From a virus, in IMG/VR virus record IMGVR_UViG_3300046779_002131, positions 33,543 through 97,542 of that record: DNA of 64,000 nucleotides. One strand, written 5' to 3'. Positions 4,806 through 25,191 of the stretch are shown piece by piece. Made by a program: the position numbers and the translations under genes. The notes under the pieces were generated by a model. It had not been told where the DNA came from, searched no databases, and worked only from the letters and a program-made list of their open reading frames with translations. Each line of letters starts with the position of its first letter. Position 1 is the stretch's first letter.

Positions 4806-4806
4806 A

Positions 4807-6096: not shown

Positions 6097-6388
6097 TTTG
6101 TGTACTTCCTATTTTTAATAATCCGCCGGATTTCATACGCCCTGGGCCGTGAATTACACGCATGTTAGTGACGTTTAAATGAGCCAAACAAGGCTGAACC
6201 AGTTCAAATCTAATTGTGTATTTTCCCGGAACCGCTGAAATTTGAAACAATTCTTCTAGATAATTTTCAGTCCAAATCCATGTGCGCTCAGCAAACAATT
6301 CATCGTTGACAAAGGTTCTGTAAGTGGGTGGTAAACCCTCCCATACACAGTCTACATCGCAGACAACTTGTACAAATTCCTGGCGCAT
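6083..6388 (-). CDS. Hypothetical protein
   Basis: 101-aa ORF with TAAATA 4 nt upstream of the ATG. Confidence 0.7.
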   Translation of the reverse strand: MRQEFVQVVCDVDCVWEGLPPTYRTFVNDELFAERTWIWTENYLEELFQISAVPGKYTIRFELVQPCLAHLNVTNMRVIHGPGRMKSGGLLKIGSTQNESQ

Positions 6389-6395
6389 GCTATAT

Positions 6396-8246
6396 TTAGC
6401 TGGCGCATTCTAAGGATTCCGGTTGGCTAATTTTGGCAGTGATTCTGGCTTTGCCAAAACCTTCTTTTCTACGCAAGATAACATAGGCTAGAAATTGATC
6501 TTGATCAGACCAAGCACTGGGATTGGTAAACTGATATTGCTGAAAGTGGTGTTGCAGTGGGACTTCAGAGTCCAATATTACATCAATTAAATTATTGGGC
6601 TGATTGATTGTTTTGATCTGCGGATCTTGGTGGCAAAATATAAAAGCACGTTGAATTTCAACAACCTGTTCTACAAAGGGATCTTTGCAAATTGATCTGA
6701 ACCAGCCGGCCAAACGTTGATGATTAGATTCAACGTCTAGATATAGAGCACGAACTGTGTTCCAAATTGCATAATATCCAGCACTTTGTCCTGAATGAAA
6801 GAACTTTTCTACATCAACCCGTATTGTCTGCATCTGTTGATTGAAATACTCGTCTGAGGGCAACCAAGCTTCTAGACTTTCGTATATCTGTTGAAAGCTC
6901 CAGCCCTGAGATCTAAGATATCTAGCATACATTTCGCACCAACCGTGATGATGAAATGTCACAATCATCCAACTAAAAATTGTAGCGTTGACAAAGTCCT
7001 CGGTACTCAGTGTTGAAGTTCCGGTAATAATACTTTGACGTTCGTTGATACCAGATAGTTCGCACTGCCAATAGTCATTGATTTCTGTGACCGTGATTCC
7101 GTATTTTTCCTGATCATCAACCAACGCACTGTTACGCAACAATTCCACTGGGAATACAAATACACATCCATGCTGACCCATTTCCAACAGTTCAAAATGA
7201 CCTTGGCGCCAGGAGTCCAGAGTTTCCTCGGGTAGTCCAAGAATTAATTCTGTGTAAAAAGGTATCTGACGTCGGTTACAGTCTTGAAACAGTGTGCTGA
7301 GATCATTGATACGCATGTTCTTGCGTTTGATTGCAGTCAGTGTGGCATCATTCATACTCTGCACACTCAATGTTAGGCCGCGATTCAATCCTTCAGCTGT
7401 GAGCTCTTGAGCAATATCAAGTATGGTTTGATTGGAATTTTTGTACCAATTGGTTTGTAGTTGCTGAGGAAATCCATACTGTCGCTTTGTTTCAACTAGC
7501 TTTTGTACAATAGCACGATCTCGATCAGGAAACACACCAAAGTTAGCATCAGTTAGCATCACAAATTCAATGCCATTTTTTCCAGCCCACTCAATTTCAG
7601 CAAACACCTTCTCCAGGGGAAATGATTTAATTTTTGAATATGTCAATCCTCCCCAGTCACAAAAAGTACAAGCAAACGGGCATCCACGATTGGTTTCAAA
7701 TGTCATGGCATATTGATGCCTGCGATCCTTGACCAAATCATCAAATAGTCCGGTTAAGTATGGGCTTGGAACATCGAGGTCAAACAATCTTTGAGCTACA
7801 TAATCTCTTTTTGGCCTGCCGTCGAGTATGTCCAGCAACACTTCCTGAAACGCATGTTCGCCCTCGTAGCGTATGGTTATATCAATCCATGAATTTTCTG
7901 CACGCCAGGCGCGGTGATCGTCTTCGCCGTTGGGAATACTTGGTCCACCAAATATTATTGTACATTCGGGATATCTTTGTTTGATGACTCGACTTAGATG
8001 CAGGTTGTACTGTTCATTCCAGACATAGTTACTGAATGCACAGATTGAAGGACAGTCAAGACTGTTGACTACTTGATCAACTGGATCTCTCAAGATTCCA
8101 AAACCAGCTAGGTTAAAATTATCTTTGACTCTGGGATTGGTAACGGCATAACTCCAAATGGCACCTACTGCATATGGTAACCAAACTGTAGTCACTGAGC
8201 CTATACCAGAAATGAAATTTGGAGCATAAAGGTATACATTGCGCAT
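6396..8246 (-). CDS. B12-binding-domain radical SAM protein
   Basis: N-terminal cobalamin-binding-like region (FSNYVWN, IIFGGP, EGE); ETNRGCPFACTFCDW; DANFG; ELILGLPEET. Confidence 0.9.
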   Translation of the reverse strand: MRNVYLYAPNFISGIGSVTTVWLPYAVGAIWSYAVTNPRVKDNFNLAGFGILRDPVDQVVNSLDCPSICAFSNYVWNEQYNLHLSRVIKQRYPECTIIFGGPSIPNGEDDHRAWRAENSWIDITIRYEGEHAFQEVLLDILDGRPKRDYVAQRLFDLDVPSPYLTGLFDDLVKDRRHQYAMTFETNRGCPFACTFCDWGGLTYSKIKSFPLEKVFAEIEWAGKNGIEFVMLTDANFGVFPDRDRAIVQKLVETKRQYGFPQQLQTNWYKNSNQTILDIAQELTAEGLNRGLTLSVQSMNDATLTAIKRKNMRINDLSTLFQDCNRRQIPFYTELILGLPEETLDSWRQGHFELLEMGQHGCVFVFPVELLRNSALVDDQEKYGITVTEINDYWQCELSGINERQSIITGTSTLSTEDFVNATIFSWMIVTFHHHGWCEMYARYLRSQGWSFQQIYESLEAWLPSDEYFNQQMQTIRVDVEKFFHSGQSAGYYAIWNTVRALYLDVESNHQRLAGWFRSICKDPFVEQVVEIQRAFIFCHQDPQIKTINQPNNLIDVILDSEVPLQHHFQQYQFTNPSAWSDQDQFLAYVILRRKEGFGKARITAKISQPESLECAS

Positions 8247-8281: not shown

Positions 8282-8842
8282 TTAGTAAGGGCGGCCTTCG
8301 GCTTCGCTGCGACAGCCTTCGTGCCAGCTGTTGGAATTTCCCGGTGGGCATAAATTGGGATCCTTGATACCACGAGACTGTGCCCATTTGTCACCGGCCT
8401 GATGACCCGAACAATCCTGTGTGCAAGGATACTCGCGCCAAGTCAAGCCATTTTCATCTAGTTCTTCTTCCATTGGTAGAGCTGCGCTGGGTGCAGGTTT
8501 TTTTACAGCACCACCGGCCACGGGTCTGCTACCCCCGGTTGAAATACTAAAAGGACCAATCGTGGTTTTTTTAGGCATTTCTCGACCAGTCCAACTTCCA
8601 TCAGGTTTAATATTGGTTACTTGCACATTAGATGGAACCGAAGCTGCTGCTGCTCGTTGTGTTTGAATCTCTTGACCAATTGCAGCTTGTTTGTTGCTTA
8701 GATCATTAATAGCTTGTGAAATATCAGATGCTGCAATCTTGGCGCCTTGTTGTGTGGTCATTGCTCCGGCGTCTACAGCATCTTTCCAAGGCATTTCGGC
8801 TTCTTGGTAAGATTTTTTCTTAACAAATTCTCGTGCTCTCAT
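8282..8842 (-). CDS. Tagged modular protein with C-terminal Cys/His module
   Basis: MRAREF tag; after ELDE a CTQDCSGHQAG..W...C...HEGC module. Confidence 0.7.
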   Translation of the reverse strand: MRAREFVKKKSYQEAEMPWKDAVDAGAMTTQQGAKIAASDISQAINDLSNKQAAIGQEIQTQRAAAASVPSNVQVTNIKPDGSWTGREMPKKTTIGPFSISTGGSRPVAGGAVKKPAPSAALPMEEELDENGLTWREYPCTQDCSGHQAGDKWAQSRGIKDPNLCPPGNSNSWHEGCRSEAEGRPY

Positions 8843-9483
8843 GTTGTTTTATATACCGTTGAAAATACATTCTTGTAGTCTTTAAAATTCTCATGGCGAT
8901 CTTGTAATCCACGCATATTGGGATTAATTTGTTTTGTTACAGCACGAGTATCATTAAAGTTTTGTACGTTGGGACGTACCCGTTGTTTCCAATACCATAT
9001 GGCAATTTTTGCTGCTATGTCTGGCCTTGACGCCAGTTCTGGCTGACGTTCTAAAGGCACGCCCAGTGCTTCTCCAGCACGACGATAGTTGTCTCGGCCT
9101 GTGATTTGTATAAAGCCACGCCCTTTGTAACGTTCGCCATCTCCGGGCTGTGTGTTGCCTAGTACTCTGGCCTTTTGTGGATCTACTCTAGGATCATATC
9201 GCAGAAAGTAATTACGATCGCCCATTTCTTGCATGTGTAAAAAACCTGCGGATTCGTGATAGCATTGTGCTAGGAACTGTGCCAGTTCTGTGCCTCTAAT
9301 ACCAGCGGATCTAGCAGCACGATGTAATGCTTCTTCTGCCCCGGTATTGGAACTAAGCAGTGGAGGCCCAACTTTTTCGCCGGCCTGTGCTGCAGGAACA
9401 CCTGCAGCGGCCATAGCGCCTGCTCCTAGTGCACCTAGGAATCCTCGACGATCTATTTCAGATATAAACTCATAGGATCTCAT
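8839..9483 (-). CDS. GH19 chitinase/lysozyme-like muramidase with Tat-like signal
   Basis: AQFLAQCYHES, YKGRGFIQITGRDNY, TKQIN; N-terminus MRSYEFISE-IDRRGFLGALGAGAMAAAG...AQA. Confidence 0.88.
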   Translation of the reverse strand: MRSYEFISEIDRRGFLGALGAGAMAAAGVPAAQAGEKVGPPLLSSNTGAEEALHRAARSAGIRGTELAQFLAQCYHESAGFLHMQEMGDRNYFLRYDPRVDPQKARVLGNTQPGDGERYKGRGFIQITGRDNYRRAGEALGVPLERQPELASRPDIAAKIAIWYWKQRVRPNVQNFNDTRAVTKQINPNMRGLQDRHENFKDYKNVFSTVYKTT

Positions 9484-9896
9484 TTAATTCCTTCGGTGAT
9501 AGGACCACCTTCTACCCAAGCATCACAAGTGCGCTTGGCAGCACATTTAAACTTCAAAAATTTACAATAGCCTAATGTGCCGGCATCTACAGTGTCGTGA
9601 GAGTCTGATCCTGGCTCTGAGCCAATTCCCAGTGCAATGCAGTCCTGAATTTTTTCCGACATATCAAATGCAGCACAGTTGCCACAACGATTATGTTTTA
9701 CTGACTCTATATCGTTGGTATTCCATTTGTCCGCTAGTTCTGCCCAGTATTCATAGTTTGGTTCGTTAGGATTGAGAGGACCATAGTGGTACTCGTCAAT
9801 GGCCTTCTGGCGATTTTTAAGGTTTAGATCAATGTTTTGCGTAGCAGGTGGGCAATTACGGCTTACTGCTTCTAATATGTTTATAAGATTTCTCAT
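9480..9896 (-). CDS. Cys-rich tagged protein (possible metal/Fe-S binding)
   Basis: RCGNCAAF...GYCKFLKFKCAAKRTCDAW. Confidence 0.7.
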   Translation of the reverse strand: MRNLINILEAVSRNCPPATQNIDLNLKNRQKAIDEYHYGPLNPNEPNYEYWAELADKWNTNDIESVKHNRCGNCAAFDMSEKIQDCIALGIGSEPGSDSHDTVDAGTLGYCKFLKFKCAAKRTCDAWVEGGPITEGIK

Positions 9897-12800
9897 TTTT
9901 TCTTACCAGATTTCATGTTAGCGCACCAGTGTGCCATTCTTTGTCGCTCACCAGAACTATTGCTGGCTATCTTTCTTAATTTACTTATGGACTGTTGGCA
10001 ATTTACACCCACACGCTTGGCTAGGCCCTTGCGTCCTGGTTTCTTGCCGTCGGCAAAGTTTTCTTCAAGGTCTGCCTGCTCAACTTCGGCTACAATACTG
10101 GCGACTTCTAAAAATGCCGATTCGCTGAGTAAGGTCAATCTATCCATGTCATAGTAACTACGATTATTGCTGTTATAGATTACAACATCAAGTCCTTGAT
10201 CACGATAACTCTGCGCTAATACAGATACTTGTCCCAGTGTTCCAACAACTTGTTCCATTACATTGTTGGGATTATCGCGGCCAATAATAGAGAAAGTGCC
10301 ACGAAGTTGCCGACGAGAATTTACTATCTTTGACTCATCAATTTGTCCTAGAGTTCGTGGATCGTAGTGTGCTATGCTTTCCTCATCAAAAATTACAGTA
10401 TTATAACCCTGCCGTTCATAATTCATTGCCACAGCAGCAGCATCTTCAAGTGTACCTGTGACTATTTCTAAAGTTGTGTCGGCATCGTCTCTGTCAATAA
10501 TTTCGTATGTTCTACGTTGTGATTGTTGTGCGGCCGGTGAATAACCTGCCTGACTGCGTGATGCATCTGATTGGCTTGATAGTTCTGCTTGCGGTTGTGC
10601 ATTATAAACTAATACTAATTGATCGTTAAACACATTAACTGGCTCACCTAATGCATCGGCCCAACGTTGTGCGGCTTCTCCTGCCATATCGTCATTGGAG
10701 TATGTGTCTGAAGCTATTTCGTCGTTAGATACAACACCAATTAAGGTATATTCTTGCTCTGCACGTGGTGTTGTTGCATTTGTTTCAGCAGCAGGTGTTC
10801 CAGTAATGAAGTAAGCACGATTAGTATTCAAATCAAAAATACGAATTTCTTCGCGTGGAACATCTCGGACAGGTATCAAACTATTTGCCCGCTGCTCGGC
10901 CTCCACCCAAGGCATAGGTCTACCAGGAAATAATATTTCACCATTGCGATTATCTACAATCTGGAATATACTTGTATGGGGTGCTCTAAAAGGTCCACCA
11001 CCGGTGCTTGGCTGCTGGGGTTCGGTGGGAGTTTCTGAAATAAATTCACCGGTATGGGTATATTCCTCGCCAGTACTATCATCCTGCAGGGTATACATCG
11101 ACGCATCTGCGTCGTCTGTCTCACCGTTTTCTTCAAGCCACTCTGCAAGTTCTTCAACGGCTTGCGCCAGAGTGCGATTGTCTATTTCACCAACAACTAA
11201 TTCTCCATCTTGCAAGATTGAGAAGTCGGTTGTGTATTCATCTGAGTGAGAGAACTGCGGACGTCTTACTTCATCTACTCCGCCTGCATCGTTTAAACGC
11301 CAATATTGATGTCCACCGTCGTCATCATGAATTAAAATGTTTCTTCCATAAGATTGATTGCTGATCTCTCTGGCACGAATTACTGCAGAGCTCAGAGTTG
11401 ACTCACCCATGTCTTCTATTTCATCACCGCTAACTCCTGAAATAATATTAAAGTTACCTCTTACATCAGGAATATTAGAACTAGAAGTTGATTGAGTATT
11501 TGATGCATTCAACAATTGGCCATTACTATCGTACGATAGTCCAGAACTTTCATTGTAGAACACAAATTCATTGTGCGGAATACTTCTTGTATCTGCATCA
11601 CGTAAAACATGAGCTCTTGCGTAGTCAAATGATCGTGTACCATTTGTGCGATAGACCATACGATCCTGTCCATCTTCACGTCGGTAAACTATCCATTCAC
11701 CATTGGCAGCACCTTGTACGGCGGTTGGTTGTGACGCTGATTGTTGTCCTCTACCTGCCCGACGAGCACGGTCTATATATGCTTGGTCAATATAATCATC
11801 TTCTTGTCCAATTCTAGAGAGAACCTGTCCAGAACTGGCATTAATGATTCTCAATCTACTTGCGAACTCGGGGTTACCAGGGTAAATTGTAGTGGATCTG
11901 TCATATAATGTATCAGCGGCCACACGAGGTATCATTGGGTCTGTTATCACCGCAACAACTGCACCGGTAGAATCCGCAGGTTGGTTAGTATCAACAATTA
12001 TCCAAGGGCCGCTGTTACCAGCCGATGATTGCTGTCCACGTTGAGCCATAGTTTCCGCAGTAACCGGTGTCCCGTCAATGTAGTAAACGCCCCCATTGTC
12101 TAAGTCGGTGATGCGTATGACATCTTCGGGAATGTTTTGGTTGAAAGACAGATCACGAGCTAACATAGCTGTAGATTCCCAACTTCTAACTCTGACCGGT
12201 ACTAATTGGTTACCATTTCTACCATCAACTATAACATAGCGAGAATTATCTGGTGGTCTGCCGGTAGATACCTGGGCAGGCCAATTAATTGGTACAACAG
12301 TATTTGAATCAAATTGTAAACGTAATGGAAGTCTTTGGCGCCATTGACGTTGAACATCAGGTGTGGCCTGGTTTAACATATCCGTTACAATTCTAGCAGC
12401 GTCTTCAGCAAAGTCAGCACTTATCATTAGTGTTGTGCTGCCACCGTTAACATCAATTAAGTTCATTGCCCGTCGTTCAGGCGCAGAGGATCTTTCTGGT
12501 TGTAGTTCAGCAGCACGTTGCTGTGCCTGTTGCTGGGCAGCCTGTCGTGCGCTGATCAATTGGTCCTGCGCTTTTTTAACAATTTCACGTACTAAAGATT
12601 TAAAAATTGGATCGTCTTTGTTTAGTTGTTGTTTTGAACTTCTAATACCCACTGCAATTTTTGTGCCGCTAAGGTATACGCCAAAGGAATCATTTAAATT
12701 ATACTGCTGGTTCATGGTAGTTAAACCACGGACTGTTGTTGGAAAAACTGTGTAGCTAACAAATCTAGAAGGGTCCGCTGCCTCAATTTTTTCTCTAGTT

Positions 12801-14644
12801 TCAGGGCGCCAGGTGCGGGCTGCAACCATTCGGTCTTTGGCCTCTTGACTGTTTCTTTGAACATTGGTTATGTCAATATCGTCTGTGGCGTATTGTTTAC
12901 GAACTGCCATAGTAAGATCCACGAAACTGTATTCTTTATCTTCTAACAAATATAGATCTTGGGTGTAGACAGCGACACCCGATTCTCTTATTTTTTTAAT
13001 CAGTTGTCGTGGATCATCAGCTTTTTCAGTCTTTTTAGGTTGTATAAAACGTGAGACTTTGTTAAGATATTCATCGCGATAGGCATCGGGGTCAGACGCA
13101 ATGACCATGGAACGCACAAATCGTCCAACTACATTTTCTACATCCTCTGCTCGGTTCAAGTAATCGCCGCCGGCGTGCCTAAAACTTACGTACTTTGAAT
13201 TTTCCGAGCTAACACTGGCCATGTGATTGCTACTGATATCTCGAACAATTTCTTTGAGTTTTTTCATAGGATCCGGAGTGTTTTCCCAATCGCGACCACT
13301 ACCTCGGTTCTCTAATGATTTAATTACACTGTTGGCATAACTGTTGTTTTCTCGGCCAAACTGTTTTAGCACATGTTCATCGCCCACAAACGTTGCTAAT
13401 TTAAGTACATCTAGACTTCGGGGAATACTGACATTGATATGTAAGCCGGTTTTGTTGTTGGCACTGGTATAAAAACCATTTTCTCTAGCAACTTGATAAA
13501 AGTTTTTTAGAACTCGAATAGCCTCAGGAGCAGGCAGTGGCGGGCCAACTATTTCGCACGAACCATCATCGCCATTTGGTCTTAGGCTACCATCAGGTTC
13601 AATGTACCAGTCGGTTAGGTTTTTAGTGCCACCGTGGTAACTGTTAAAAATATGTACTGGACGATTGAATACTGGAAAAATTACATTTTTAACAAAGTCT
13701 GCGGTACGACGATACATGTTACTACTACTTCTATATCTATCTGGATCGTAATCTGGGTTATAGCCGCCAAGCACATTATTAACAGCCTTGGCTTTACCAG
13801 TGATAACCTTCCAAGGACCAGACATGAGACGGGCCATTTGCACAGAGCCGTATTTGATTTTTACCCATTGAGCAAATTGGTCTCGACTATCAGCTGTGTC
13901 AAACATGTAAGCATGCCCTATTCGATCACGAACAGCGTCTAGTAATGCGTCCCAGAAAATTCTTTCTGCATTCATGTGCGCTACTTCTGAGTTTTGGTGC
14001 TCAAATCCATGTTCGCGCCGAGCCTCATAGTAACGATCGCTGTAATGACGATACTTTTCTGAAATAACTGATGTAATTCTGCTATTCGCATCCGAAGGAT
14101 TGCTTATAGTAAAGTTAGTAAAAGATTCGGCATTATCAAAATCAATATCGTTAGATTTTAGGTATTCTTTGACTTCTGCGGCTCGTTGTTCTTTAGTCTT
14201 TATCCACTCAGTCAGTTCTCCATCGTAATTACGCTGTACTAATCTTGTGTAGGCTTTGGCAATGGATTCATCAAACAAACTAGAATATGTTGCAAACACT
14301 GTATCTTTGCAGTATGAATCTAGAATTTTTTTAGTAGCAGGTTCAATACCAGGCACAGGTTCTTCTGATGCTATGAGTTGATCAAATGACGTTCTTACGT
14401 GTGTGACTCTTTCAAGTTTTTGCAACCAACCTTTGACAGTCATCGTGCCCCAGTTTACTACAGGTTCTTGTTCGGCAACTTCTCGACCGCGATTTTCCCA
14501 GGCAACCACTCGCTCTTTAGGAACGCAAACTTCAAATTCAAAGCCCACTAGAACGCCTAGGTCGCCACCTTCCTTGACCGCCTGGCGGAAAACCGTGGGA
14601 CTCATTCTTGCTTCGTACAGCGGATCAATTTCGTTAAATTTCAT
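9893..14644 (-). CDS. Large polyvalent protein: amidoligase (COOH-NH2 ligase type 2) domain plus array of small repeated domains
   Basis: VGFEFEV...WYIEPDGSL...CEIVGPP...KTGLHINVS...YVSFRHAGGDY; the C-terminal half has degenerate 55-70 aa repeats. Confidence 0.8.
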   Translation of the reverse strand: MKFNEIDPLYEARMSPTVFRQAVKEGGDLGVLVGFEFEVCVPKERVVAWENRGREVAEQEPVVNWGTMTVKGWLQKLERVTHVRTSFDQLIASEEPVPGIEPATKKILDSYCKDTVFATYSSLFDESIAKAYTRLVQRNYDGELTEWIKTKEQRAAEVKEYLKSNDIDFDNAESFTNFTISNPSDANSRITSVISEKYRHYSDRYYEARREHGFEHQNSEVAHMNAERIFWDALLDAVRDRIGHAYMFDTADSRDQFAQWVKIKYGSVQMARLMSGPWKVITGKAKAVNNVLGGYNPDYDPDRYRSSSNMYRRTADFVKNVIFPVFNRPVHIFNSYHGGTKNLTDWYIEPDGSLRPNGDDGSCEIVGPPLPAPEAIRVLKNFYQVARENGFYTSANNKTGLHINVSIPRSLDVLKLATFVGDEHVLKQFGRENNSYANSVIKSLENRGSGRDWENTPDPMKKLKEIVRDISSNHMASVSSENSKYVSFRHAGGDYLNRAEDVENVVGRFVRSMVIASDPDAYRDEYLNKVSRFIQPKKTEKADDPRQLIKKIRESGVAVYTQDLYLLEDKEYSFVDLTMAVRKQYATDDIDITNVQRNSQEAKDRMVAARTWRPETREKIEAADPSRFVSYTVFPTTVRGLTTMNQQYNLNDSFGVYLSGTKIAVGIRSSKQQLNKDDPIFKSLVREIVKKAQDQLISARQAAQQQAQQRAAELQPERSSAPERRAMNLIDVNGGSTTLMISADFAEDAARIVTDMLNQATPDVQRQWRQRLPLRLQFDSNTVVPINWPAQVSTGRPPDNSRYVIVDGRNGNQLVPVRVRSWESTAMLARDLSFNQNIPEDVIRITDLDNGGVYYIDGTPVTAETMAQRGQQSSAGNSGPWIIVDTNQPADSTGAVVAVITDPMIPRVAADTLYDRSTTIYPGNPEFASRLRIINASSGQVLSRIGQEDDYIDQAYIDRARRAGRGQQSASQPTAVQGAANGEWIVYRREDGQDRMVYRTNGTRSFDYARAHVLRDADTRSIPHNEFVFYNESSGLSYDSNGQLLNASNTQSTSSSNIPDVRGNFNIISGVSGDEIEDMGESTLSSAVIRAREISNQSYGRNILIHDDDGGHQYWRLNDAGGVDEVRRPQFSHSDEYTTDFSILQDGELVVGEIDNRTLAQAVEELAEWLEENGETDDADASMYTLQDDSTGEEYTHTGEFISETPTEPQQPSTGGGPFRAPHTSIFQIVDNRNGEILFPGRPMPWVEAEQRANSLIPVRDVPREEIRIFDLNTNRAYFITGTPAAETNATTPRAEQEYTLIGVVSNDEIASDTYSNDDMAGEAAQRWADALGEPVNVFNDQLVLVYNAQPQAELSSQSDASRSQAGYSPAAQQSQRRTYEIIDRDDADTTLEIVTGTLEDAAAVAMNYERQGYNTVIFDEESIAHYDPRTLGQIDESKIVNSRRQLRGTFSIIGRDNPNNVMEQVVGTLGQVSVLAQSYRDQGLDVVIYNSNNRSYYDMDRLTLLSESAFLEVASIVAEVEQADLEENFADGKKPGRKGLAKRVGVNCQQSISKLRKIASNSSGERQRMAHWCANMKSGKKK

Positions 14645-17181
14645 TTTCGTTTTTTTGGTTGTGCTCGTAGTCTTTTCATTATAGGCGCTGCAATGGCTTT
14701 AATGTAATTTATCGTCGCAGGATGACCGGGTGGCAAGCGCGAATCTGTAAAAGTATAAAACTTGTAGCTATTCTGCGCAGTTCTTCCTACATCGTTGGTG
14801 CTAGGAACAAGAAACTCAGGTGGCCGAATAAATGTAGTTCTTGTAAAGTTGGCCAAGGGCCATGCTTGAATTCTTTCGCGATTGCCTGGAGCACGAATTC
14901 TATCTAGCATGGTTTGTCTTGCTGCTTCACTATTGGCTTCAACAGACACCTGCTGCATTTCTCTGGTTTTACCTGGCCTAATAGGACCAACACCAGCAGT
15001 GTCCTGGACAATAACAGGAATACCATTCATACGAATATCGTTAATAACAGCCATCAATCTCCGTTGATCAGCTTTGAGACTGCTGCCTCCAGGTAGTTGA
15101 GGTTGTTCGGGAAATAGTTTAGTTAACTTTGTCAAGTATTCGTTTCTATATGCCGTGGGATCTGCGGCAATGACCATGGCCTGAATAAATCTACCCACAG
15201 TGTTGGTGACACCTTGGGGGTCTTTGAGATAAGCTCCTCCGGCATGTCTAAAGCTAACATATTTTCCGTTATAGTTGATACTAGCAGTGTGATTTCCTGA
15301 AATATTCTTTGCTATGTCAACAAGTTTTGCTAGGTCTCGAGGTTTAGCAGCCACTTTGCCGCTGCCTTGAGTTCGTATATCTCGCATAACACTTCGAGCG
15401 TAACCTGATTGTTGTCGACCATAATGTTTTAACACATATTGATCGCCCAGCAGCACAGCTAATTTCAACACATCTATGTTCTTGGGTATACTGACATTGA
15501 TATGCAAGCCGGTGCTAGAATTTGTATATAATTTTAGATTTTCGGCAATACTAAAAAACTTATTCAACACCGTCATGGCTTCGGCGGCAGGATATGGTGG
15601 ACTCACAATCTCGGCTGTGGCGTCATCGGGCGCACTGGCATCTAGGCTTCCATCAGGTTCTACGTACCAATCGGTTAAATTTTTCACTCGCTGATGATAG
15701 TCATCGAATACAACTACATTTTTTTGATATGTGGCTTCAAGTTGTGCCTTTAAGATTTTGGCAGCTTTCCGATATTCTGGATCCCAATCTTCATCTTCGT
15801 CATCGCCCCGTTCGTAGTAATCAAGCTCAAGATAATCATAAGCAGCTTGAGGATTGTCAAAGGTAAAATAGTCTAAGAAATTGTTCTCAACGTCGTACGA
15901 CGTTACACCCAATGCCCAGGCCAGAACTTCAACTAACCGATTTGGTTGTTGACCTAACTTGCGTAAGTATAGTCCTTGATTTGCTGTATAACCACGAGAT
16001 GCATAGAACACTTTTTGTCCAAACTCTCTTGCAAACTTGTACTGTTTGCCCAGCCTTGACATACGACGGTAACTTGCATTTTGTTCAAGTTCGTCCTTGA
16101 CTGTACGCACATGCTGAGTGCGCAATCTTTGCGGTATTGCGTCAAACGCAGCAATGAGGTCAGTCAGTTGCGCCTCCATCATTGCTTGGCGCATGGTTTT
16201 TACATTGGGCCAATTGATATTGGAATTTTTAAACTTAAACACATCAAGAAATTTGCCAAATTCCTGATCTTCAATATCAAAACGGTCTATGTTCGGGTCG
16301 TGGTCATGTATCAGTTCTATAACTCGAGCCCTGGTAAGTTCTGGCTGTGGTTGTGGTGTATTTGCGATGGGTTGGTTCTGAATGGTTTCTTCGGGAATAC
16401 ACACTTCAAATTCGTATCCCACTAACACACCCTCAGTTTGCCCTTGAGCCACTGCTTGTCGAAATGCCGTGGGATTCATGGCAACTTCATCAACTTCAGT
16501 GCCCGGGACCGAAGTACCATACACAATAGAGTTGGGGTTAATGTTTAAATTTTGAGCCAATTGTTTGATCACTAGATCAACTTTGTTAGCCGGAACTTGT
16601 GATTTTATTAAGCGTCGAATAGGATCACCCTGACGATTTTTACCACTGACATAGACATCTACAGGTTCGTCACCAAAGATAATACGTCCTTCCTGGACAG
16701 TAGTTGCTAGATCAAACAGCGGACCGCGCACATATCCCTGCGTTCCTTGTGCATTCAGTCCTTGTTGTAGATGCTTAATTATTTCCGGGGTAAGGTCGCG
16801 ATTACGTAGTCCACCACGTGGAAACAAATGTACTTCTATGGGATTGTTGCCTTCGGCTGCAGCCGCAGCATACATTCTATGGCGACCATCATGTCCAATT
16901 ACCGAGGCAGGCTCGGAGAAATCTCCTGAGAACCAGGCTTCGGGAATACGTAAATCAAGAAACGGAGCGCCGATACCAGGATCGTCAAGGTGTTGACCAA
17001 TGTACTTAATAGTCGCACGATCGTCAACGGTTTTGCGACCAATAGGTAGTGCTAGTTTTAAAAATGTCAGGGGTTTCATCAGCACACGCAGGCCAACATA
17101 GTCGACATTTTGATTGTTGGGCGTTGCACCAAGGCCGGCTTGATTGTTGATTCGTAATTCGTTTAAGTCCCAGGCTCGCAT
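14641..17181 (-). CDS. Polyvalent protein: ParB/Srx-like N-terminal domain plus amidoligase domain
   Basis: GHDGRHR (ParB-like); VGYEFEV...WYVEPDGSL...AEIVSPP...TNSSTGLHINVS...YVSFRHAGG. Confidence 0.8.
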   Translation of the reverse strand: MRAWDLNELRINNQAGLGATPNNQNVDYVGLRVLMKPLTFLKLALPIGRKTVDDRATIKYIGQHLDDPGIGAPFLDLRIPEAWFSGDFSEPASVIGHDGRHRMYAAAAAEGNNPIEVHLFPRGGLRNRDLTPEIIKHLQQGLNAQGTQGYVRGPLFDLATTVQEGRIIFGDEPVDVYVSGKNRQGDPIRRLIKSQVPANKVDLVIKQLAQNLNINPNSIVYGTSVPGTEVDEVAMNPTAFRQAVAQGQTEGVLVGYEFEVCIPEETIQNQPIANTPQPQPELTRARVIELIHDHDPNIDRFDIEDQEFGKFLDVFKFKNSNINWPNVKTMRQAMMEAQLTDLIAAFDAIPQRLRTQHVRTVKDELEQNASYRRMSRLGKQYKFAREFGQKVFYASRGYTANQGLYLRKLGQQPNRLVEVLAWALGVTSYDVENNFLDYFTFDNPQAAYDYLELDYYERGDDEDEDWDPEYRKAAKILKAQLEATYQKNVVVFDDYHQRVKNLTDWYVEPDGSLDASAPDDATAEIVSPPYPAAEAMTVLNKFFSIAENLKLYTNSSTGLHINVSIPKNIDVLKLAVLLGDQYVLKHYGRQQSGYARSVMRDIRTQGSGKVAAKPRDLAKLVDIAKNISGNHTASINYNGKYVSFRHAGGAYLKDPQGVTNTVGRFIQAMVIAADPTAYRNEYLTKLTKLFPEQPQLPGGSSLKADQRRLMAVINDIRMNGIPVIVQDTAGVGPIRPGKTREMQQVSVEANSEAARQTMLDRIRAPGNRERIQAWPLANFTRTTFIRPPEFLVPSTNDVGRTAQNSYKFYTFTDSRLPPGHPATINYIKAIAAPIMKRLRAQPKKRK

Positions 17182-17182
17182 A

Positions 17183-17659
17183 TTAGTCTAGATCTTCAGG
17201 TGCTTCGTCAGGGCCAATTGCATCCAAGGCACGTTTTAGTTGTGTCAAAGGCAAATTAGCATTGTCATACCCACGCACAATGCGTTGTAGATAACTCTGT
17301 GTGGGCACACGACCTTGTAGTCGTTCTCGTGTTTCCGGAGTCATGGTGTAGACAAAGGCTTCGTAGCGTTGTGCATTACACACCACAGGTACTGCTTTGC
17401 GATCATACAAGTAAGGATAGCCTTCGGTTTGATCTAGTTGTGATAAAAACTCTCGAGACACTGACCATAACACGCCGTCCACTGCACCGCGCTCGGGAAA
17501 TACATTGGCATAACCACAGAATTCAAAATTAAAATTAGGTAGCTTTGCGCCGCCAATGAATTCAGCTGCGTCCATAATTTCAGGATCCGTGAGCATGCCG
17601 TAGGCAAAATAATAAATTGGTAATGCGCCGGCTTCGGTTAGTATGTCATGGATTTTCAT
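17183..17659 (-). CDS. Gamma-glutamylcyclotransferase (AIG2-like) family protein
   Basis: YYFAYG, VDGVLW, LDQTEGYPYLYDR, AFVYTM, P..SYL..I..GY. Confidence 0.88.
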   Translation of the reverse strand: MKIHDILTEAGALPIYYFAYGMLTDPEIMDAAEFIGGAKLPNFNFEFCGYANVFPERGAVDGVLWSVSREFLSQLDQTEGYPYLYDRKAVPVVCNAQRYEAFVYTMTPETRERLQGRVPTQSYLQRIVRGYDNANLPLTQLKRALDAIGPDEAPEDLD

Positions 17660-17698
17660 TTTTAGATTCTCTTGTTTATATATCCAATATTATTTTGG

Positions 17699-20600
17699 CT
17701 ATCTTGCTGGTACCACCATAAACTCGCCACTGCCTAGTAAACCATTTTGTCTCAACCAGTTAGCAGCATACTGATTAGCTTCGCCTTGGTTGCTGCGATG
17801 TACAAAACTATACACTTCTCTATCGTTTTGATCCAACACTAACCAACGTGTGTTACCTGGCGGCAAGCTTTCTGTTCCTTGAGCTTGATTTCTCCAGCCC
17901 GGCTGCGGTATTTCTTCAGCTTCAATAGATTCAACATTGTTGCCATTGCGTATTAGTATTGAATGAACTCGTTCCATAGCAGCATTGGCATTTCTTGCAG
18001 TAATGTTAACGCTATTCAACGTAGTATGTGTGCCATCGTTTACAGTATAAGTTACTCTAAACTGTGGATTATTTTCTTCACCGGGCTCTGTGGGCACAGT
18101 GTGCCTTGGACGCATTAGAGGTCGCAGATAGTATGGATCGTCAAATCCGGTATCTAAAGCCCATCTTCTCCCATATACTTCTGCATCTCTTATGGCATTG
18201 CCTACACCTGAGAATTGATGTACTACTTCGTCAGTAGTACGCGACACAATTTCCCAGGTACCCGAGAACTCTTGATCAGCCGATGCTGCACGTTGTCTTG
18301 CTAGTTCTGCAGTTGATCCAGGAATACCACGACCTTCGATTCTACGTACATTATATCTACTTCGATCGTCACGATCGCGCCCGGATAACCAATCATTGAA
18401 TTTACGTCTTGCTTCTTCATCAGTGTTGGCAATAAATCTAAATACCGGTATCTGGTTGTCTAAATTTATGATTTCATAGTTAGCATCGGTACTCTGTTCA
18501 CCACCTACTGCACCACCTGGCCGCATTACAACGCCATACGGCGATTCAATACTGTCAATGGTATATTCATCAATTTGATCTTGACTATATCCTCGACTAC
18601 GTAGTGTACGCCACAATGCCGCAGCAGCTTGTGAAAAATCGTTGCCTACATCAGGTGTTTGGAAACGCACGTTGTAGATACTGGGATATCTAGCATCTTT
18701 TAATCTGGCTATGTATTCAACACTGCCTCCAGGCACAGGCATTTCGGGTCTTTGCTGTGCTACACCCTGAATTTTTCGTGCGAGATCTGCTTTGCGAGTT
18801 TTAATATCTTTAGGTACACCGTCAACTTCACGATAGTCAATATATAACCAATCCTTTTGGTCAAAGTTGTTAATGATATAGTTAGGCATGTCATAGATGT
18901 TGGCATCAACCTGTCCAAGCACTTCGTCGGGGCGACGCTCATCAAATATTTCCCAGGTACGCACTGAGGTGTCTTGAGGATCTGTGGTATGTAGAACTTT
19001 AGAAGCCCACTCGTTTTTTAATTGTTCGCCGGTTATACCACCAGCACTGTAGGAAGCAAACATTTTCATCATGGCACTGTCGCCTTCGGGTGCCAATAGT
19101 TTGTAAAGTTTTTTACCATACTCTTGACGTTCGGCACTGGGATCGCCGGCAATTTGCATAGCACGAGCTAGACGTAAAAATGTTGTGTTTAATTCTTCGT
19201 TAGATTTGTCTAGGTAGTCTCCGCCGGGTCCACGGAACTCTATGTAACTTGGCTTGCCCTTGTCGTCGCGATGTACATGCGCTGACTGATATTTGTTTCT
19301 ACCACCTTCTCCATGTAAGAAATTTCTAGTGGCAAGTTCTATTAGATTCTTGCGCATTAGTTCAAACGCATCGGGTATCTTTTTCAAGCCGGCTTTTTTA
19401 GCACTGGCAACATAGTCTGCAAGTTTTGTCATTGAGCTTGAACAAAAGTGTATGGCTGTACGTCCAAATTGTTCTAGTACGTGCTGGTCACCCATGAATA
19501 ACAATAATTTAACATAGTCAACGTCGGCTCCGCGATGAGGTATTGATATGTTCATGTGCAGACCTGTGCTGCTGTTGGTATAGCCTCCAATGTCTCGAGC
19601 CCATTCCATAACTTTGTCCATGTCCGACAAGGTCTTGCTCAAGGTCTGTTCGGGACTGACAACTTCAAATCCAGCATCAATGTCATCATCAGGGTGAATA
19701 CTGGAATCGCCTTCAATAATCCAAAGTCCGGGCTCACGTCGGATACTGTGATATCCAGTGCTCATTTTAACACGCATGTTGACGGCAGCAGCAAGACTAG
19801 TTCTAATTTCGTCGGGGTTGCGACTGCCGGCGTTGCCACCCGTTTCGGTCATGTAAGGCCAACTGAGGTCAAAAGAGTTTCCAATATCACTCATGTAGCC
19901 ATATTCACTACGTAAAAAGTCTCGTTCGGAATTGTTGTCCATGAATTCGGCACGGTACTCATCATAGAATTCTTCCCAAGGTGAGCTAGATTTTTTTTCG
20001 TACTGATCCTGTATTTCATCCTCAAATGCAATTCTTGCCTCAGTCTCAGCACGTTGGTATTCGGCATACAAGGGATGGTCTACATTTTCTAATCTGCCGG
20101 CTTCAAGAGCATCACTGGCTTCGGCGCCCTCAATATCTGCGTTGTAGAGTTCATCACCTATTAGATCTTCACGACGATTAGGCCATTCATTTTCCCACAT
20201 CCAGGTTGAAAATTCGTTAAAAAGATTGTCGTCAATTTTATTGTCGATCCACTCATAGTATTCACTAGTTAAATCACTTCTCAAACGTTCTTGTTGACTT
20301 CGCGTTAGGCCATAGCCCCACTCATCATCGCTGAAGAAATCAACTACATCGTCAATATCGCCAGGGCGCTGATCAGCATCGTAGTCAGGCTCTAGTTCAC
20401 TTTCACCTTCTTCGTCATAGGTGTCTCGAAAACATAATTCGGCTTCAAATCCAGCATGTATGTCTTGGGCTTCAGGACTACGTGCCCATGCTTCAAGAGC
20501 TCGGGGAGTCATGGCAACTTCAAACAGCTCCTCACTTTCACGCAACAACGGCGGTGTACCATCTCTGGCAATCTTCCATCCCAGCTTCTTGGCGTTCTTT

Positions 20601-22567
20601 TGCATGGAGTCAGGACGTATATCCACAGTGAGAGCCATTGAAAAACGTGGATCGTCTTTTTCGGCTTCACTGGGAATGTAACCTGATGATTCATCAAGAT
20701 CTTGTGTGGGCATACCAAGTCGTTTGAGAGACTTGATATACTTGTGCTCTAAATCTTCATCACCAAAACTTATTACTGTAGATGGTGGTCCTTTGCCAAA
20801 AGAACTTTTATCAAAATCGTCAAGGTCAGATATTCCTTGCCCGAGTTTATACCAATCATAAACGTCTGATACTGCAACTTTTACTGTGCCTTTGGGAAAC
20901 TGTGGTGGCGACTCAGGTCCCGGAGGATCATTACCATCGTCATACTCCCATTCTTCTTCTTGTTCTTCAAGATTTTTTTCACGGAAATATTCTGGATATT
21001 GTTCGGCAAACTGTCGCATTATGATACCAGCTTCGGCGTTCGCCTGATTTTCTTCTTGAGATCCAGTTTTACCTGAATGCATGTCTAATTCACCGCGTTG
21101 ATCCTGCGCAGCATGTGTAAGTTCATGTGCCAGAGTCCTTAATACATCAACAATGTGACGATTGGCTGTGACCAATATCAAAGACTTTGTTTCAGGATCA
21201 TAACGACCAAAACTGTTGTTCTTTGCGCTCCATTCGGCATTTTTGACAAGACGAATTTGAGGTAGACGTTGTAGCCCAAGATGTTGTGCTGCTGCCTTGG
21301 CAAACTTGCGAACTACGGTTTTGACATCAGCTGATTCATCTTCGCTGGTAAACATTGTTGTGGAAGGTGATACTCCGTCCCAGGTATGTCCTACATCTTC
21401 GCTGGTAAACATTGTTGTGGAAGCGGATACTCCGTCCCAGGTATGTCCAGCATCTTCTTTGGTTTTTTCTCGGGGATATCCACGACGAATGTCTATACTG
21501 TAGGTGCCTTCGAGTCCTTGACGGTCCAAGGTGTCAGATACAAATTTTTCTGCATCACGACTTGATTGAAAACGATCGCCAAGATCAAACTTGCGTGTCT
21601 CACCGTTGATAGTAACATAGGCAACAGTGATGGGTTTGGCTTCGGTCTTTGGTGGTTCGGCTGCGGCCGGTGTTGTGGCCACTGCTCCGGCAAGAGCAGC
21701 AGCACGAGATGCTTTGTATAGATTGTCAGCAAAGCCTTCTTCAACTTGCTCGCCACCTTCGGTCCCAGCAGGATGATCTTGCCCAGCATAGGCAAACCCC
21801 GGAAACCAATAACCTCCGCTGTATCCATAACTGCGTCGAGTTTTTTTCTTGGATTGTTTTTTCTCGTCAAGACTCAGTTCACGAGCATGTGCATCGCTGC
21901 GAGCATTGGCCAGTCGTTCAATATAACCTTGGCTACGCAGCATTTTGAATGCAAGATTTTCTGCACTGAATTCGCCATGCTCGTCAAGTCCAGCCTGACG
22001 CATGACTCGAATTTTTTTCATTAATTCTTCAGCACCTTGTCCACTCTTAATTGAATTTTCAATACGCTGCTTGAGATCCTCGTATTTGTTACGCACAACA
22101 GCATCGTTGATGTCGGCACGTTTGCGACGTGGAACTTGTATCCATTTATTGCGTTTTAGTGAATATTCGCCTTGTGAAACAACATCTTCGTCAGCGGGCT
22201 GTACATACAATTCAACATCAGCATCACGCACAGTGATATTGTGCAGATCATTGTATTGATATTTTTTTGCATTGAATAATTCACGAAACACTGGATCATA
22301 GAGTTCGGGAATATCTACAATTAAATGTAGATCAATATCAGAATGTGGAGTATAAGTGTAGCTGGCGTTGCTACCACTGACTGTGATATCTTTTACCTGT
22401 AAATCAGGTACGCCAAGAAATTCTTGAAAATCCGCGGCAATTTTCAGTAGAGCTTCGCGAACTTCGGGTTTGATTCTTTCACGCCCGTCCCACAGTCGGG
22501 GATTGAGCCGACTGTGGAAACGAATCGCATCCTTTAGATCGTAGCTGTCCAGTTCATTTATGTTCAT
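17699..22567 (-). CDS. Large polyvalent protein: Pol-beta-type nucleotidyltransferase + HEXXH zincin-like domain + amidoligase + small repeated domains
   Basis: GSNASY...SDIDLH...VELY; RTLAHELTH...ENQAN; AGFEAEL...WIIEGDSSI...FEVVSP...TNSSTGLHMNIS...YIEFRGPGGDY. Confidence 0.8.
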   Translation of the reverse strand: MNINELDSYDLKDAIRFHSRLNPRLWDGRERIKPEVREALLKIAADFQEFLGVPDLQVKDITVSGSNASYTYTPHSDIDLHLIVDIPELYDPVFRELFNAKKYQYNDLHNITVRDADVELYVQPADEDVVSQGEYSLKRNKWIQVPRRKRADINDAVVRNKYEDLKQRIENSIKSGQGAEELMKKIRVMRQAGLDEHGEFSAENLAFKMLRSQGYIERLANARSDAHARELSLDEKKQSKKKTRRSYGYSGGYWFPGFAYAGQDHPAGTEGGEQVEEGFADNLYKASRAAALAGAVATTPAAAEPPKTEAKPITVAYVTINGETRKFDLGDRFQSSRDAEKFVSDTLDRQGLEGTYSIDIRRGYPREKTKEDAGHTWDGVSASTTMFTSEDVGHTWDGVSPSTTMFTSEDESADVKTVVRKFAKAAAQHLGLQRLPQIRLVKNAEWSAKNNSFGRYDPETKSLILVTANRHIVDVLRTLAHELTHAAQDQRGELDMHSGKTGSQEENQANAEAGIIMRQFAEQYPEYFREKNLEEQEEEWEYDDGNDPPGPESPPQFPKGTVKVAVSDVYDWYKLGQGISDLDDFDKSSFGKGPPSTVISFGDEDLEHKYIKSLKRLGMPTQDLDESSGYIPSEAEKDDPRFSMALTVDIRPDSMQKNAKKLGWKIARDGTPPLLRESEELFEVAMTPRALEAWARSPEAQDIHAGFEAELCFRDTYDEEGESELEPDYDADQRPGDIDDVVDFFSDDEWGYGLTRSQQERLRSDLTSEYYEWIDNKIDDNLFNEFSTWMWENEWPNRREDLIGDELYNADIEGAEASDALEAGRLENVDHPLYAEYQRAETEARIAFEDEIQDQYEKKSSSPWEEFYDEYRAEFMDNNSERDFLRSEYGYMSDIGNSFDLSWPYMTETGGNAGSRNPDEIRTSLAAAVNMRVKMSTGYHSIRREPGLWIIEGDSSIHPDDDIDAGFEVVSPEQTLSKTLSDMDKVMEWARDIGGYTNSSTGLHMNISIPHRGADVDYVKLLLFMGDQHVLEQFGRTAIHFCSSSMTKLADYVASAKKAGLKKIPDAFELMRKNLIELATRNFLHGEGGRNKYQSAHVHRDDKGKPSYIEFRGPGGDYLDKSNEELNTTFLRLARAMQIAGDPSAERQEYGKKLYKLLAPEGDSAMMKMFASYSAGGITGEQLKNEWASKVLHTTDPQDTSVRTWEIFDERRPDEVLGQVDANIYDMPNYIINNFDQKDWLYIDYREVDGVPKDIKTRKADLARKIQGVAQQRPEMPVPGGSVEYIARLKDARYPSIYNVRFQTPDVGNDFSQAAAALWRTLRSRGYSQDQIDEYTIDSIESPYGVVMRPGGAVGGEQSTDANYEIINLDNQIPVFRFIANTDEEARRKFNDWLSGRDRDDRSRYNVRRIEGRGIPGSTAELARQRAASADQEFSGTWEIVSRTTDEVVHQFSGVGNAIRDAEVYGRRWALDTGFDDPYYLRPLMRPRHTVPTEPGEENNPQFRVTYTVNDGTHTTLNSVNITARNANAAMERVHSILIRNGNNVESIEAEEIPQPGWRNQAQGTESLPPGNTRWLVLDQNDREVYSFVHRSNQGEANQYAANWLRQNGLLGSGEFMVVPAR
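21337..21457. repeat. In-frame 57-bp tandem duplication (two copies plus a fragment)
   Basis: Encodes EDAGHTWDGVSASTTMFTS / EDVGHTWDGVSPSTTMFTS / ED. Confidence 0.95.
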
Positions 22568-22585
22568 ATGAACTGTATTTATTGC

Positions 22586-23578: not shown

Positions 23579-24148
23579 TTATTTTAGGCCGATTATCATT
23601 GATCTGTGATATTGAGTTTGGGGATCTTCTAGCTTGATACGACCTTGATAGAGTATTTGACCGAACGGAAATCTTTTGATAATGTCTTCGGGGCCGTAAA
23701 AGTTTCTATTGGGATCTTGATCACGACCTTGCAGCACTACCAATTGACCTTGGGGTATATTCTGGAACCACTGTTTGCCAGGCATGTCAGTGAGACTGGT
23801 GTTGATTACAACACTGTCAGAGTCAAGTTGGCGATAATCAAGATCATTTGCATCACGCAACATGTATTCTACATTATCAAACCCTGCGCTGTCTATGAAT
23901 TGTTGTCCGGTTTTCAAGAATTCTTTGTTGGTTTCTACATTGATGATTTTTTCAACCCTGGGAAATCCATAATGATCAATCATAAAGGCCAAGTTGCCAT
24001 ACCATGACCCAAGAACATAAGCAGTTGAAATGTTGGGGTTTATTTTGGCCAGTTCTTTCATCAACCATATTTTGCTAAACACTAGATCCGGAGTCCAACT
24101 ACCTTCAAAACTGTAGCCGCTGCTTTCGGTTAGGTCACGTATGTTCAT
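23579..24148 (-). CDS. Class I SAM-dependent methyltransferase-like protein (tagged)
   Basis: YVLGSWYGNLA Rossmann motif, DAN, VINTS; N-terminus MNIRDLTE. Confidence 0.65.
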   Translation of the reverse strand: MNIRDLTESSGYSFEGSWTPDLVFSKIWLMKELAKINPNISTAYVLGSWYGNLAFMIDHYGFPRVEKIINVETNKEFLKTGQQFIDSAGFDNVEYMLRDANDLDYRQLDSDSVVINTSLTDMPGKQWFQNIPQGQLVVLQGRDQDPNRNFYGPEDIIKRFPFGQILYQGRIKLEDPQTQYHRSMIIGLK

Positions 24149-25191
24149 TTCTTTTTACGACCTTGGCAGTGTGCTCGTTGACTAAAGCCCCGGGGATTGG
24201 AGCAGTTGATTGAGCGTTTGTATTTTTCACTCCATTTTTCTTCGATGTAATCAGGAGACTCAATAAAACCCCATCTTGGTTTATCGGCTTCGTCTTGCGG
24301 ATCATAGTACCACACTGTGTTGTCATTTAAATCAGTCACTAACCAAACAACTAATCTAGTTCTAGGATCTGCTGACCATATAAATTCCACTTCGTCTGTG
24401 GCATCATCAATGCTGCTAAATTTACCAACCAGGTGTCGCTGTACTCCATCACCGGTCCACAGGCGATATTGTTCAAAACCTTCGGGAGCGAACTCCATTA
24501 TTGTTTTGTCATCAATAGCACGTTCAAGTCTAAGTATGCGTTCAACCAGTGCAACACCGCGTTGGCTGGGCTGTCGTCGCTGCTCATAAACAAACTCTGT
24601 GACTTCTTTCACAGTGTCAAGGCGTGCGTCAAATATCGAACGTATTTTACTGTCAACATCACCATATAGATCTAGTATGATTTGATCACGCAGCGCATTG
24701 TTGCCTTTGATGTAGCGTTCGCGGATCTGCGTAGCTGAGTTGGCATCGGCACCGGCCACACGAAACGTAACTGTAGGAACCACTGTGACATACGCATGGT
24801 CACCGAAAGGTTTCATTTCTTTGGGATTTTTTGGCATGGGCTGCATGTAACTTGCGGAGCCATCTTTTTTAGGTGCAAAACTGATGCGTTCGGCATCCTT
24901 GGCACCCAGTGCAAATATCAAACGATCCGATTCGGGATTGTAGTCTTTGGTAACTTCAGCAGCTTGATAGGGATTTTTGACTTTGACAATACGACTACCT
25001 GGTACTCCCAGCTTGATCATCATGTCTTGCTTGTCACCAAATGTAAATGGTGATGTTATTGGAGCCTGTTTGTCTGATGTAGCAACATAGACATTGTCTG
25101 CGCCCCACTGCTGAGCCAACTGTTTATAGACACCAAAGTGTCCGCGATGAAAGGGGTGAAAACGCCCGGGATAAACTACAATAGTTGCCAT
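24145..25191 (-). CDS. HxGH cytidylyl/nucleotidyltransferase-like domain with C-terminal appended modules
   Basis: VVYPGRFHPFHRGH, SATQIR; then IMEFAP and IEEKWSEKYKRSINCSNPRGFSQRAHC modules. Confidence 0.78.
   Translation of the reverse strand: MATIVVYPGRFHPFHRGHFGVYKQLAQQWGADNVYVATSDKQAPITSPFTFGDKQDMMIKLGVPGSRIVKVKNPYQAAEVTKDYNPESDRLIFALGAKDAERISFAPKKDGSASYMQPMPKNPKEMKPFGDHAYVTVVPTVTFRVAGADANSATQIRERYIKGNNALRDQIILDLYGDVDSKIRSIFDARLDTVKEVTEFVYEQRRQPSQRGVALVERILRLERAIDDKTIMEFAPEGFEQYRLWTGDGVQRHLVGKFSSIDDATDEVEFIWSADPRTRLVVWLVTDLNDNTVWYYDPQDEADKPRWGFIESPDYIEEKWSEKYKRSINCSNPRGFSQRAHCQGRKKK

Follow-up and report, generated by a model that had tools for sequence, protein, structure and literature searches.

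What use would a virus have for three predicted enzymes joining carboxyl to amino groups, built into proteins of up to 1622 amino acids (aa), and for a fourth enzyme predicted to split gamma-glutamyl-amine bonds that is encoded among them? The question is raised by a stretch of 64,000 nucleotides (nt), here called the window, which covers bases 33543-97542 of the 97.5 kb IMG/VR virus record IMGVR_UViG_3300046779_002131. CheckV assigns the record a completeness of 28%, which suggests a phage of roughly 350 kb. The genes in question code for a 1622-aa, an 846-aa and a 1583-aa protein, each with one amidoligase module, and for a 158-aa cyclotransferase. A first-pass annotation had described them as three tandem giant amidoligases flanking a gamma-glutamylcyclotransferase (GGCT), delivered from the virion to modify the host. 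The reading favored here, with a probability slightly above one half (about 0.55), is that a T4-like jumbo phage packs these proteins as enzyme cassettes into its prohead, where the prohead protease would trim them, and that they enter the host along with the DNA, where the ligases would attach gamma-glutamyl groups.

Ligase modules and cyclotransferase

The three ligase modules are paralogues, with BLASTP identities of 42% (E-value 1e-68), 32% (2e-26) and 29% (1e-27) that are far beyond chance. Each of the five amidoligase motifs is found once per large protein: GFEFE at position 34, WYIEPDGS at 346, EIVGP at 364, TGLHINVS at 399 and FRHAGG at 488 of the 1583-aa protein; GYEFE (255), WYVEPDGS (505), EIVSP (524), TGLHINVS (557) and FRHAGG (644) in the 846-aa protein; and GFEAE (706), WIIEGDSS (949), EVVSP (968), TGLHMNIS (1001) and FRGPGG (1111) in the 1622-aa protein. 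The open reading frames (ORFs), BLASTP and the Pfam profile Amidoligase_2 (PF12224; gathering cut-off of 22 bits, scores in Table 1) agree on these domains, as first annotated. Two further details of that annotation hold. Every module begins right after a Glu with a similar sequence (E/ARMSPTVF, E/VAMNPTAF and E/VAMTPRAL in the 1583-, 846- and 1622-aa proteins, the slash marking the putative cleavage point), and the stretch between the first and second motifs, of 312, 250 and 243 aa in the same order, is different in each paralogue, with no mutual similarity. The residues Glu, Glu, Glu, Asp, Glu, His, Asn, Arg and Arg are invariant across 54 homologues. All three window modules retain them and therefore look catalytically competent as judged from their sequences, that of the 1622-aa protein being the most divergent outside these positions. 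PHROGs has no family for the 1583-aa or the 846-aa protein, and phmmer searches of the module and its flanking domains against PDB sequences gave nothing usable.

Module 2 was the one modelled, together with the C-terminal domain that follows it (aa 231-846 of the 846-aa protein). AlphaFold2 (AF2), run with 54 homologues, gave a predicted local distance difference test score (pLDDT) of 86.8, compared to 35 without an alignment. The fold check proposed in the first-pass annotation was carried out on this model. The top ten matches of the exhaustive VIA structure comparison are all glutamine synthetases (Z 9.4-11.5, 185-207 aligned residues, root-mean-square deviation 3.2-4.8), so that the module of the 846-aa protein, as modelled, has a glutamine-synthetase fold. 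They are followed by YbdK (Z 8.7), Dop (8.6), plant glutamate-cysteine ligase (GCL; 8.2) and PafA (7.6). Foldseek returned weak matches only (best E-value 7.6e-3), every one a glutamine synthetase. PafA and Dop were considered as the closest structural relatives and rejected, their Z of 7.6-8.6 lying below the values of the glutamine synthetases. The model places the insert, a helical domain, behind the first strand and shows a basic alpha/beta domain C-terminal to the core.

The 158-aa protein matches Pfam GGACT (PF06094) with 51.8 bits (cut-off 22.8), AIG2_2 with 38.3 bits and phrog_2520 at 2.6e-18. The GGCT-type gene reported among the ligases is thus present, and is GGACT/AIG2-like. The protein has AYGML at aa 19-23 and LDQTEGYPYLYDR, which may correspond to the YGxL substrate-binding motif and the catalytic Glu of this enzyme family. 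The cyclotransferase is genetically tied to the ligase family. The two are fused in 4 of the 10 longer homologues tested, and GGACT adjoins a ligase or is fused to it, at either the N- or the C-terminus, in 14 of 49 viral loci, some of which show a ligase-GGACT-ligase order resembling that of the window. Each of the five large relatives studied (160-354 kb) has one GGACT and two to six ligase modules, often far apart. The fusions in both orders and the recurrent adjacency bear out the association that had been noted for the window.

The link between ligase and AIG2 is already known in phage annotation. Iyer, Abhiman, Burroughs and Aravind, in Mol Biosyst in 2009 (cited in PMC11318856), reportedly paired phage ligases of the glutamine-synthetase fold with an AIG2-family cyclotransferase and predicted peptide-like or gamma-glutamyl modifications, and the Pfam entry is said to record the association as well. 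The present proteins are like these Amidoligase_2/AIG2 systems in that a carboxylate-amine ligase of this fold and an AIG2-family cyclotransferase are carried by a phage. They differ by a helical insert of ~240-310 aa after the first strand, a basic C-terminal domain, acidic repeat tails, a T4-type leader with its cleavage site and the multidomain setting, and they match no PHROG amidoligase family.

Searches with the module found 1847 clusters (50% identity) at an E-value <=0.001 and 260 at <=1e-30, mostly on phage contigs of 240-355 kb; nearly all come from giant phages that have not been cultured. To our knowledge the family has no characterized member. The usual homologue has 620-680 aa, in which a leader precedes the module and the basic domain follows it; arrays of 2-5 paralogues in tandem are a common sight (49 viral loci). 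Longer homologues other than the GGACT fusions carry SLT and LysM domains, a cytidylyltransferase-like domain with a 5'-nucleotidase, or a nucleotidyltransferase (NTase). A megablast search of phage records with the 12.7 kb region gave no match, and tblastn retrieved distant matches only, in phages RsoM2USA and Atu_ph07. The best ligase match in a 354 kb relative (G002:C1:126360-128312) has one in-frame TAG, which could be a sequencing error, a pseudogene mutation or recoding.

Table 1. Features of the ligase-cyclotransferase locus (window positions).
Feature	Positions	Strand	Evidence or remarks
1622-aa polyvalent protein (NTase head, zincin peptidase, amidoligase module, tail repeats)	17699..22567	-	ORF and translation; homologues of N-terminal part
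Pol-beta-type NTase head of 1622-aa protein, aa 1-235, GS...DxD motif	21863..22567	-	phrog_36119 7.7e-43; NTP_transf_2 21.6 bits
Zincin-like metallopeptidase of 1622-aa protein, aa 401-540, HELTH	20948..21367	-	DUF6782 25.4 bits (cut-off 27); weak Peptidase_M78, M76
Amidoligase module 3 (1622-aa protein), aa 684-1165, after LFE/VAMTP	19073..20518	-	Amidoligase_2 23.3 bits; BLASTP 2e-26 and 1e-27 against the other two
Four copies of ~55-aa tail repeat, 1622-aa protein, aa 1204-1609	17741..18958	-	regex scan, alignment, hidden Markov model (HMM)
GGACT/AIG2-like gamma-glutamyl(amine) cyclotransferase, 158 aa, leader MKIHDILTE/A	17183..17659	-	Pfam GGACT, phrog_2520
846-aa protein: mobile N-domain, amidoligase module 2, basic C-domain	14641..17181	-	ORF, translation, Pfam
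158-aa mobile domain of 846-aa protein, GHDGRHR motif, possibly ParB/Srx-like	16702..17181	-	161 homologues
Amidoligase module 2 (846-aa protein), aa 233-700, after VDE/VAMNP, helical insert	15082..16485	-	Amidoligase_2 31.6 bits; AF2; glutamine-synthetase fold (model)
Basic alpha/beta C-terminal domain of 846-aa protein, isoelectric point (pI) 11.3, family-typical	14644..15081	-	model; aligns with aa 541-632 of 1583-aa protein
1583-aa protein: leader, amidoligase module 1, basic domain, acidic repeat tail, basic end cassette	9893..14644	-	ORF, translation
Capsid-targeting-like leader MKFNEIDPLYE/A, 1583-aa protein	14612..14644	-	compare T4 IPIII/IPII
Amidoligase module 1 (1583-aa protein), aa 12-540	13025..14611	-	Amidoligase_2 21.9 bits excised, 23 bits in six-frame search; 42% identity to module 2
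Eight copies of ~55-aa tail repeat, acidic tail of 1583-aa protein, pI 4.4	10121..12247	-	regex scan, alignment, HMM
55-aa basic end cassette of 1583-aa protein, pI 11.2, after LEE/	9896..10060	-	sequence; recurs in L027, L028
TAAATA, T4-late-promoter-like, 14 nt before ATG of 1622-aa gene (first of operon)	22576..22581	-	enrichment at gene starts

Leaders, putative cleavage sites and protein architecture

For phage T4, a stretch of ten residues at the N-terminus is enough to bring a foreign protein into the head, where the stretch is then removed by gp21 (PMC9026906, PMC10229621). The T4 internal proteins IPIII and IPII start with MKTYQEFIAE/A (read from NC_000866). The 1583-aa, 846-aa and GGACT proteins of the window begin with MKFNEIDPLYE/A, MRAWDLNE/L and MKIHDILTE/A, and neighboring window proteins with MRSYEFISE/, MRANEFLAE/ and MKILDIIFE/. 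They share with T4 IPI-III and Alt a leader of ~10 aa that follows the pattern M-K/R-x-x-acidic-hydrophobic and ends in hydrophobic-x-Glu. The 1622-aa protein has a similar start without an early hydrophobic-x-Glu site.

This organization is widespread in the family. Among the 89 homologues with an N-terminal module, 87 have Glu immediately before the conserved module start (V/A-x-M-N-P) and 85 have L, V or I two positions before the module; the leader has a median length of 12 aa, and 73 of the 89 follow a strict T4-like start pattern. A hydrophobic-x-Glu site also lies ahead of the module in 27 of the 28 homologues where the module is internal, from which it follows that the giant proteins are probably polyproteins. 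The term "giant amidoligases" is correct in that each large protein contains a ligase and imprecise in that the ligase is one cassette of multidomain, probably cleaved polyproteins. GGACT orthologues carry the same kind of leader, and it recurs in the distant homologues of two cultured phages, RsoM2USA (ORF26) and Atu_ph07 (AUZ94978). The five large relatives with the ligase family all code for a Peptidase_S77, the T4 gp21-type protease, and for a Gp23 capsid protein; the ligase cluster is not adjacent to the head genes in relatives.

Two proteins encoded on the minus strand, a GH19 lysozyme (window 8839-9483) and a 316-aa protein (35424-36374; Pfam TAT_signal 21.3 bits), have a capsid-targeting-like leader immediately followed by a twin-arginine signal (RRGFLxALGA). 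They might be injected and then re-exported to the periplasm via the host Tat system.

The 1622-aa protein, which unites NTase, zincin, ligase and repeats, belongs by its sequence to a conserved family of NTase-zincin-cargo polyvalent proteins. The first ~260 aa, containing the NTase head, are found with 56-72% identity in >1100 proteins of 900-2800 aa encoded on contigs of up to ~353 kb. The cargo behind the head varies: Amidoligase_2 is the commonest, and GNAT, cytidine/dCMP-type deaminase (PF00383), NUDIX, GH19, SLT with LysM, M23 and sigma-70 region 4 are also found. The head is far better conserved than any of this cargo and may serve this phage clade as an anchor or core enzyme. In the 119 best homologues of the N-terminal part of the 1622-aa protein, HExxH is present in all, the amidoligase module in 106 and the tail repeats in 92, the repeat never occurring without the ligase. 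A peptide of ~20 aa (GHTWDGVS.STTMFTSED) is tandemly duplicated at aa 360-400, between NTase and zincin (window ~21370-21490, minus strand).

Such proteins fit the concept of the polyvalent proteins known from phages and conjugative elements, in which Pol-beta NTases, zincin peptidases with a proposed role in self-processing, ParB-like domains and peptidoglycan hydrolases are found in very large proteins predicted to be injected with the DNA (PMC5512222). The combination of disparate enzyme domains in very large chains is common to both. In contrast, the ligase is the commonest cargo here, and processing may use a T4-type head protease besides the zincin.

The tail repeats were found with a hand-seeded HMM, BLAST having seen no internal repeats in the tails. 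The HMM matches solely the C-termini of amidoligase proteins, behind the modules. The tail of the 1583-aa protein has no homologue among proteins of 391-1245 aa, the lengths searched, and no Atlas hit. The basic end cassette of this protein (NFADGKKPGRKGLAKR...) directly follows the leader of a GGACT protein in two other contigs, L027 and L028 (about 4194-4907 and 6205-6918), and this recurrence indicates a mobile mini-cassette. The 846-aa protein is made of a mobile domain and a ligase. Its N-terminal domain has 161 homologues, mostly standalone with a leader of their own and elsewhere fused to Hydrolase_2, GH19, Pol-beta NTase or DUF6934. Its identity as ParB_N was an Atlas lead (score 0.92) that was not confirmed, with no Pfam hit and no PDB profile hit.

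Possible roles of the cassettes

By analogy to T4, the short N-terminal leaders would target the proteins to the scaffolding core, and a gp21-type protease cutting after hydrophobic-x-Glu would remove the leaders and release the ligase cassettes contained in the polyproteins. Once inside the new host cell, each ligase would use ATP to activate a gamma-glutamyl carboxylate and couple it to an amine on its target. The chemistry is assigned by superfamily: glutamine synthetase, GCL, PafA, Dop, PuuA and GmaS activate the gamma-glutamyl carboxylate as an acyl phosphate, and for this reason the same is expected of the window modules, the modelled one of which shares the fold with these enzymes at an identity of only 10-15%. 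What is modified may be decided by the helical insert, which differs between the paralogues, together with the tail repeats, which evolve fast; we prefer a host protein or other macromolecule as the target. GGACT would split gamma-glutamyl-amine bonds to 5-oxoproline and free amine, and might either reset the mark or strip a transient gamma-glutamyl group. The SLT-LysM-ligase fusions of relatives speak for packaged effectors.

A number of points weigh against this proposal. The record of the window, 28% complete, shows no homologue of gp21 (Peptidase_S77) or Gp23. Hydrophobic-x-Glu is a short motif, and the leader could instead be a conserved feature of translation start or folding. The RsoM2USA study identified ten abundant bands only, and the distant homologue ORF26 is not among them. 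For delivery from the virion, as first proposed, the evidence comes from sequence: the leaders of the 1583-aa, 846-aa and GGACT proteins, the hydrophobic-x-Glu sites before the modules and the gp21-type protease of relatives. In near-complete relatives GGACT lies 30-160 kb away from the ligases. Enzymes fused in one chain more often act sequentially than in opposition.

The tandem ligases could alternatively form a sequential small-molecule pathway, building or protecting an amine-bearing metabolite or short peptide with gamma-glutamyl, for example a polyamine conjugate, that GGACT then deprotects. Precedent is found in butirosin synthesis, where BtrG removes a protecting glutamate. The arrays of 2-5 paralogues resemble stepwise peptide assembly, the GGACT-ligase fusions suit consecutive steps, and the nearest folds are those of enzymes acting on small molecules, namely glutamine synthetase, gamma-glutamylmethylamide synthetase and 1-naphthylamine-specific glutamine synthetase. 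However, it is not obvious why such a pathway should require leaders for capsid targeting, junctions within polyproteins or fusions to SLT, LysM, zincin and NTase effector domains, and other biosynthetic genes are not consistently adjacent. We regard it as unlikely, while placing it ahead of the other alternatives.

A role during head assembly comes next and is clearly less probable. The proteins would then be internal-body or scaffold components, the ligase making isopeptide links between virion proteins and GGACT clearing gamma-glutamyl-lysine remnants after prohead proteolysis, in keeping with the mammalian GGACT, which clears epsilon-(gamma-glutamyl)lysine. The evidence from leaders and cleavage sites applies equally to this role, and the long acidic tails with their repeats and the basic cassette at the end resemble filler of the head interior or peptides that contact DNA. 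Yet leader-tagged T4 enzymes such as Alt act after injection, at least three divergent paralogues with fast-evolving tails suit host targets more than conserved virion partners, and the search with the 1583-aa tail, within its length range, found no homologue. The addition of amino-acid or amide groups to modified phage bases by the ligases is the least probable alternative: amidoligase and amidotransferase genes do co-occur with thymidine-hypermodification genes in viral contigs (PMC8989533) and the basic domain behind the ligase (pI 9.3-11.3) could bind nucleic acid, but the cluster is part of an operon encoding leader-tagged proteins and adjoins a lysozyme gene, enzymes that modify DNA after its replication do not have to be targeted to the capsid, and no 5-hmU kinase or aGPT-Pplase was seen beside the ligases, where no systematic search was made.

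Within the preferred reading, in which packaged cassettes are injected with the DNA, a sharper version can be formulated. The injected ligases would gamma-glutamylate host proteins or macromolecules within seconds of infection, with the co-injected cyclotransferase as remover, a new takeover chemistry comparable to ADP-ribosylation by Alt. This version is tentative, and we consider it rather doubtful. In a bolder variant, the Glu-ended fragments left by the head protease could serve as Pup-like tags that are ligated to host lysines.

Operon organization and relation to known systems

The minus strand carries nearly all genes surrounding the amidoligase/GGACT cluster. The genes of the cluster are packed head to tail, with 39 nt between the 1622-aa and GGACT genes and 1 nt between the GGACT and 846-aa genes. 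The 846-aa and 1583-aa genes overlap as ATGA, and the overlaps run on into a 138-aa ORF and the GH19 lysozyme gene. Shortly after the downstream end of this leader-tagged operon comes the gene of a 616-aa radical SAM protein (window 6396-8246, minus strand). A cytidylyltransferase-like gene is found 1.6 kb upstream of the cluster (24145-25191, minus strand), and a 2938-aa homologue elsewhere fuses this domain type to two ligase modules and a 5'-nucleotidase.

The sequence TAAATA occurs <=45 nt from 11 of the 47 minus-strand gene starts, compared to 1.4% of random windows. At the minus-strand starts 6388, 8246, 22567, 25191, 36374 and 45524 it lies 10-14 nt before the ATG with no intervening Shine-Dalgarno sequence, an arrangement that suggests near-leaderless late mRNAs made from a T4-late-like promoter. 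Enrichment is limited to the short form: the exact T4 late promoter TATAAATA has 1 match for 2.9 expected. Scans for sigma-70 promoters and terminators remained at background level.

The system combines three known themes: the pairing of Amidoligase_2 with AIG2, the polyvalent protein and capsid targeting as in T4. No paper describing packaged amidoligases was found in the literature. The enzyme Alt of T4 is delivered as infection begins and modifies host proteins (PMC9026906). Unlike the ADP-ribosylation by Alt, the predicted chemistry of the putative cargo is ATP-dependent amide ligation and cyclotransfer, and putative cleavage sites are found also between polyprotein cassettes.

If the reading of the leaders and cleavage sites is true, the injected proteins of T4-like jumbo phages could be listed by a simple rule on their sequence, and amide ligation and cyclotransfer would be added to the few chemistries that phages bring into the cell in finished form. 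RsoM2USA ORF26 and Atu_ph07 AUZ94978 would then be cultured, testable entry points. The concept of polyvalent proteins is extended to a cargo that the main text of its founding paper (PMC5512222) does not mention, whether as amidoligase, COOH-NH2 ligase or cyclotransferase.

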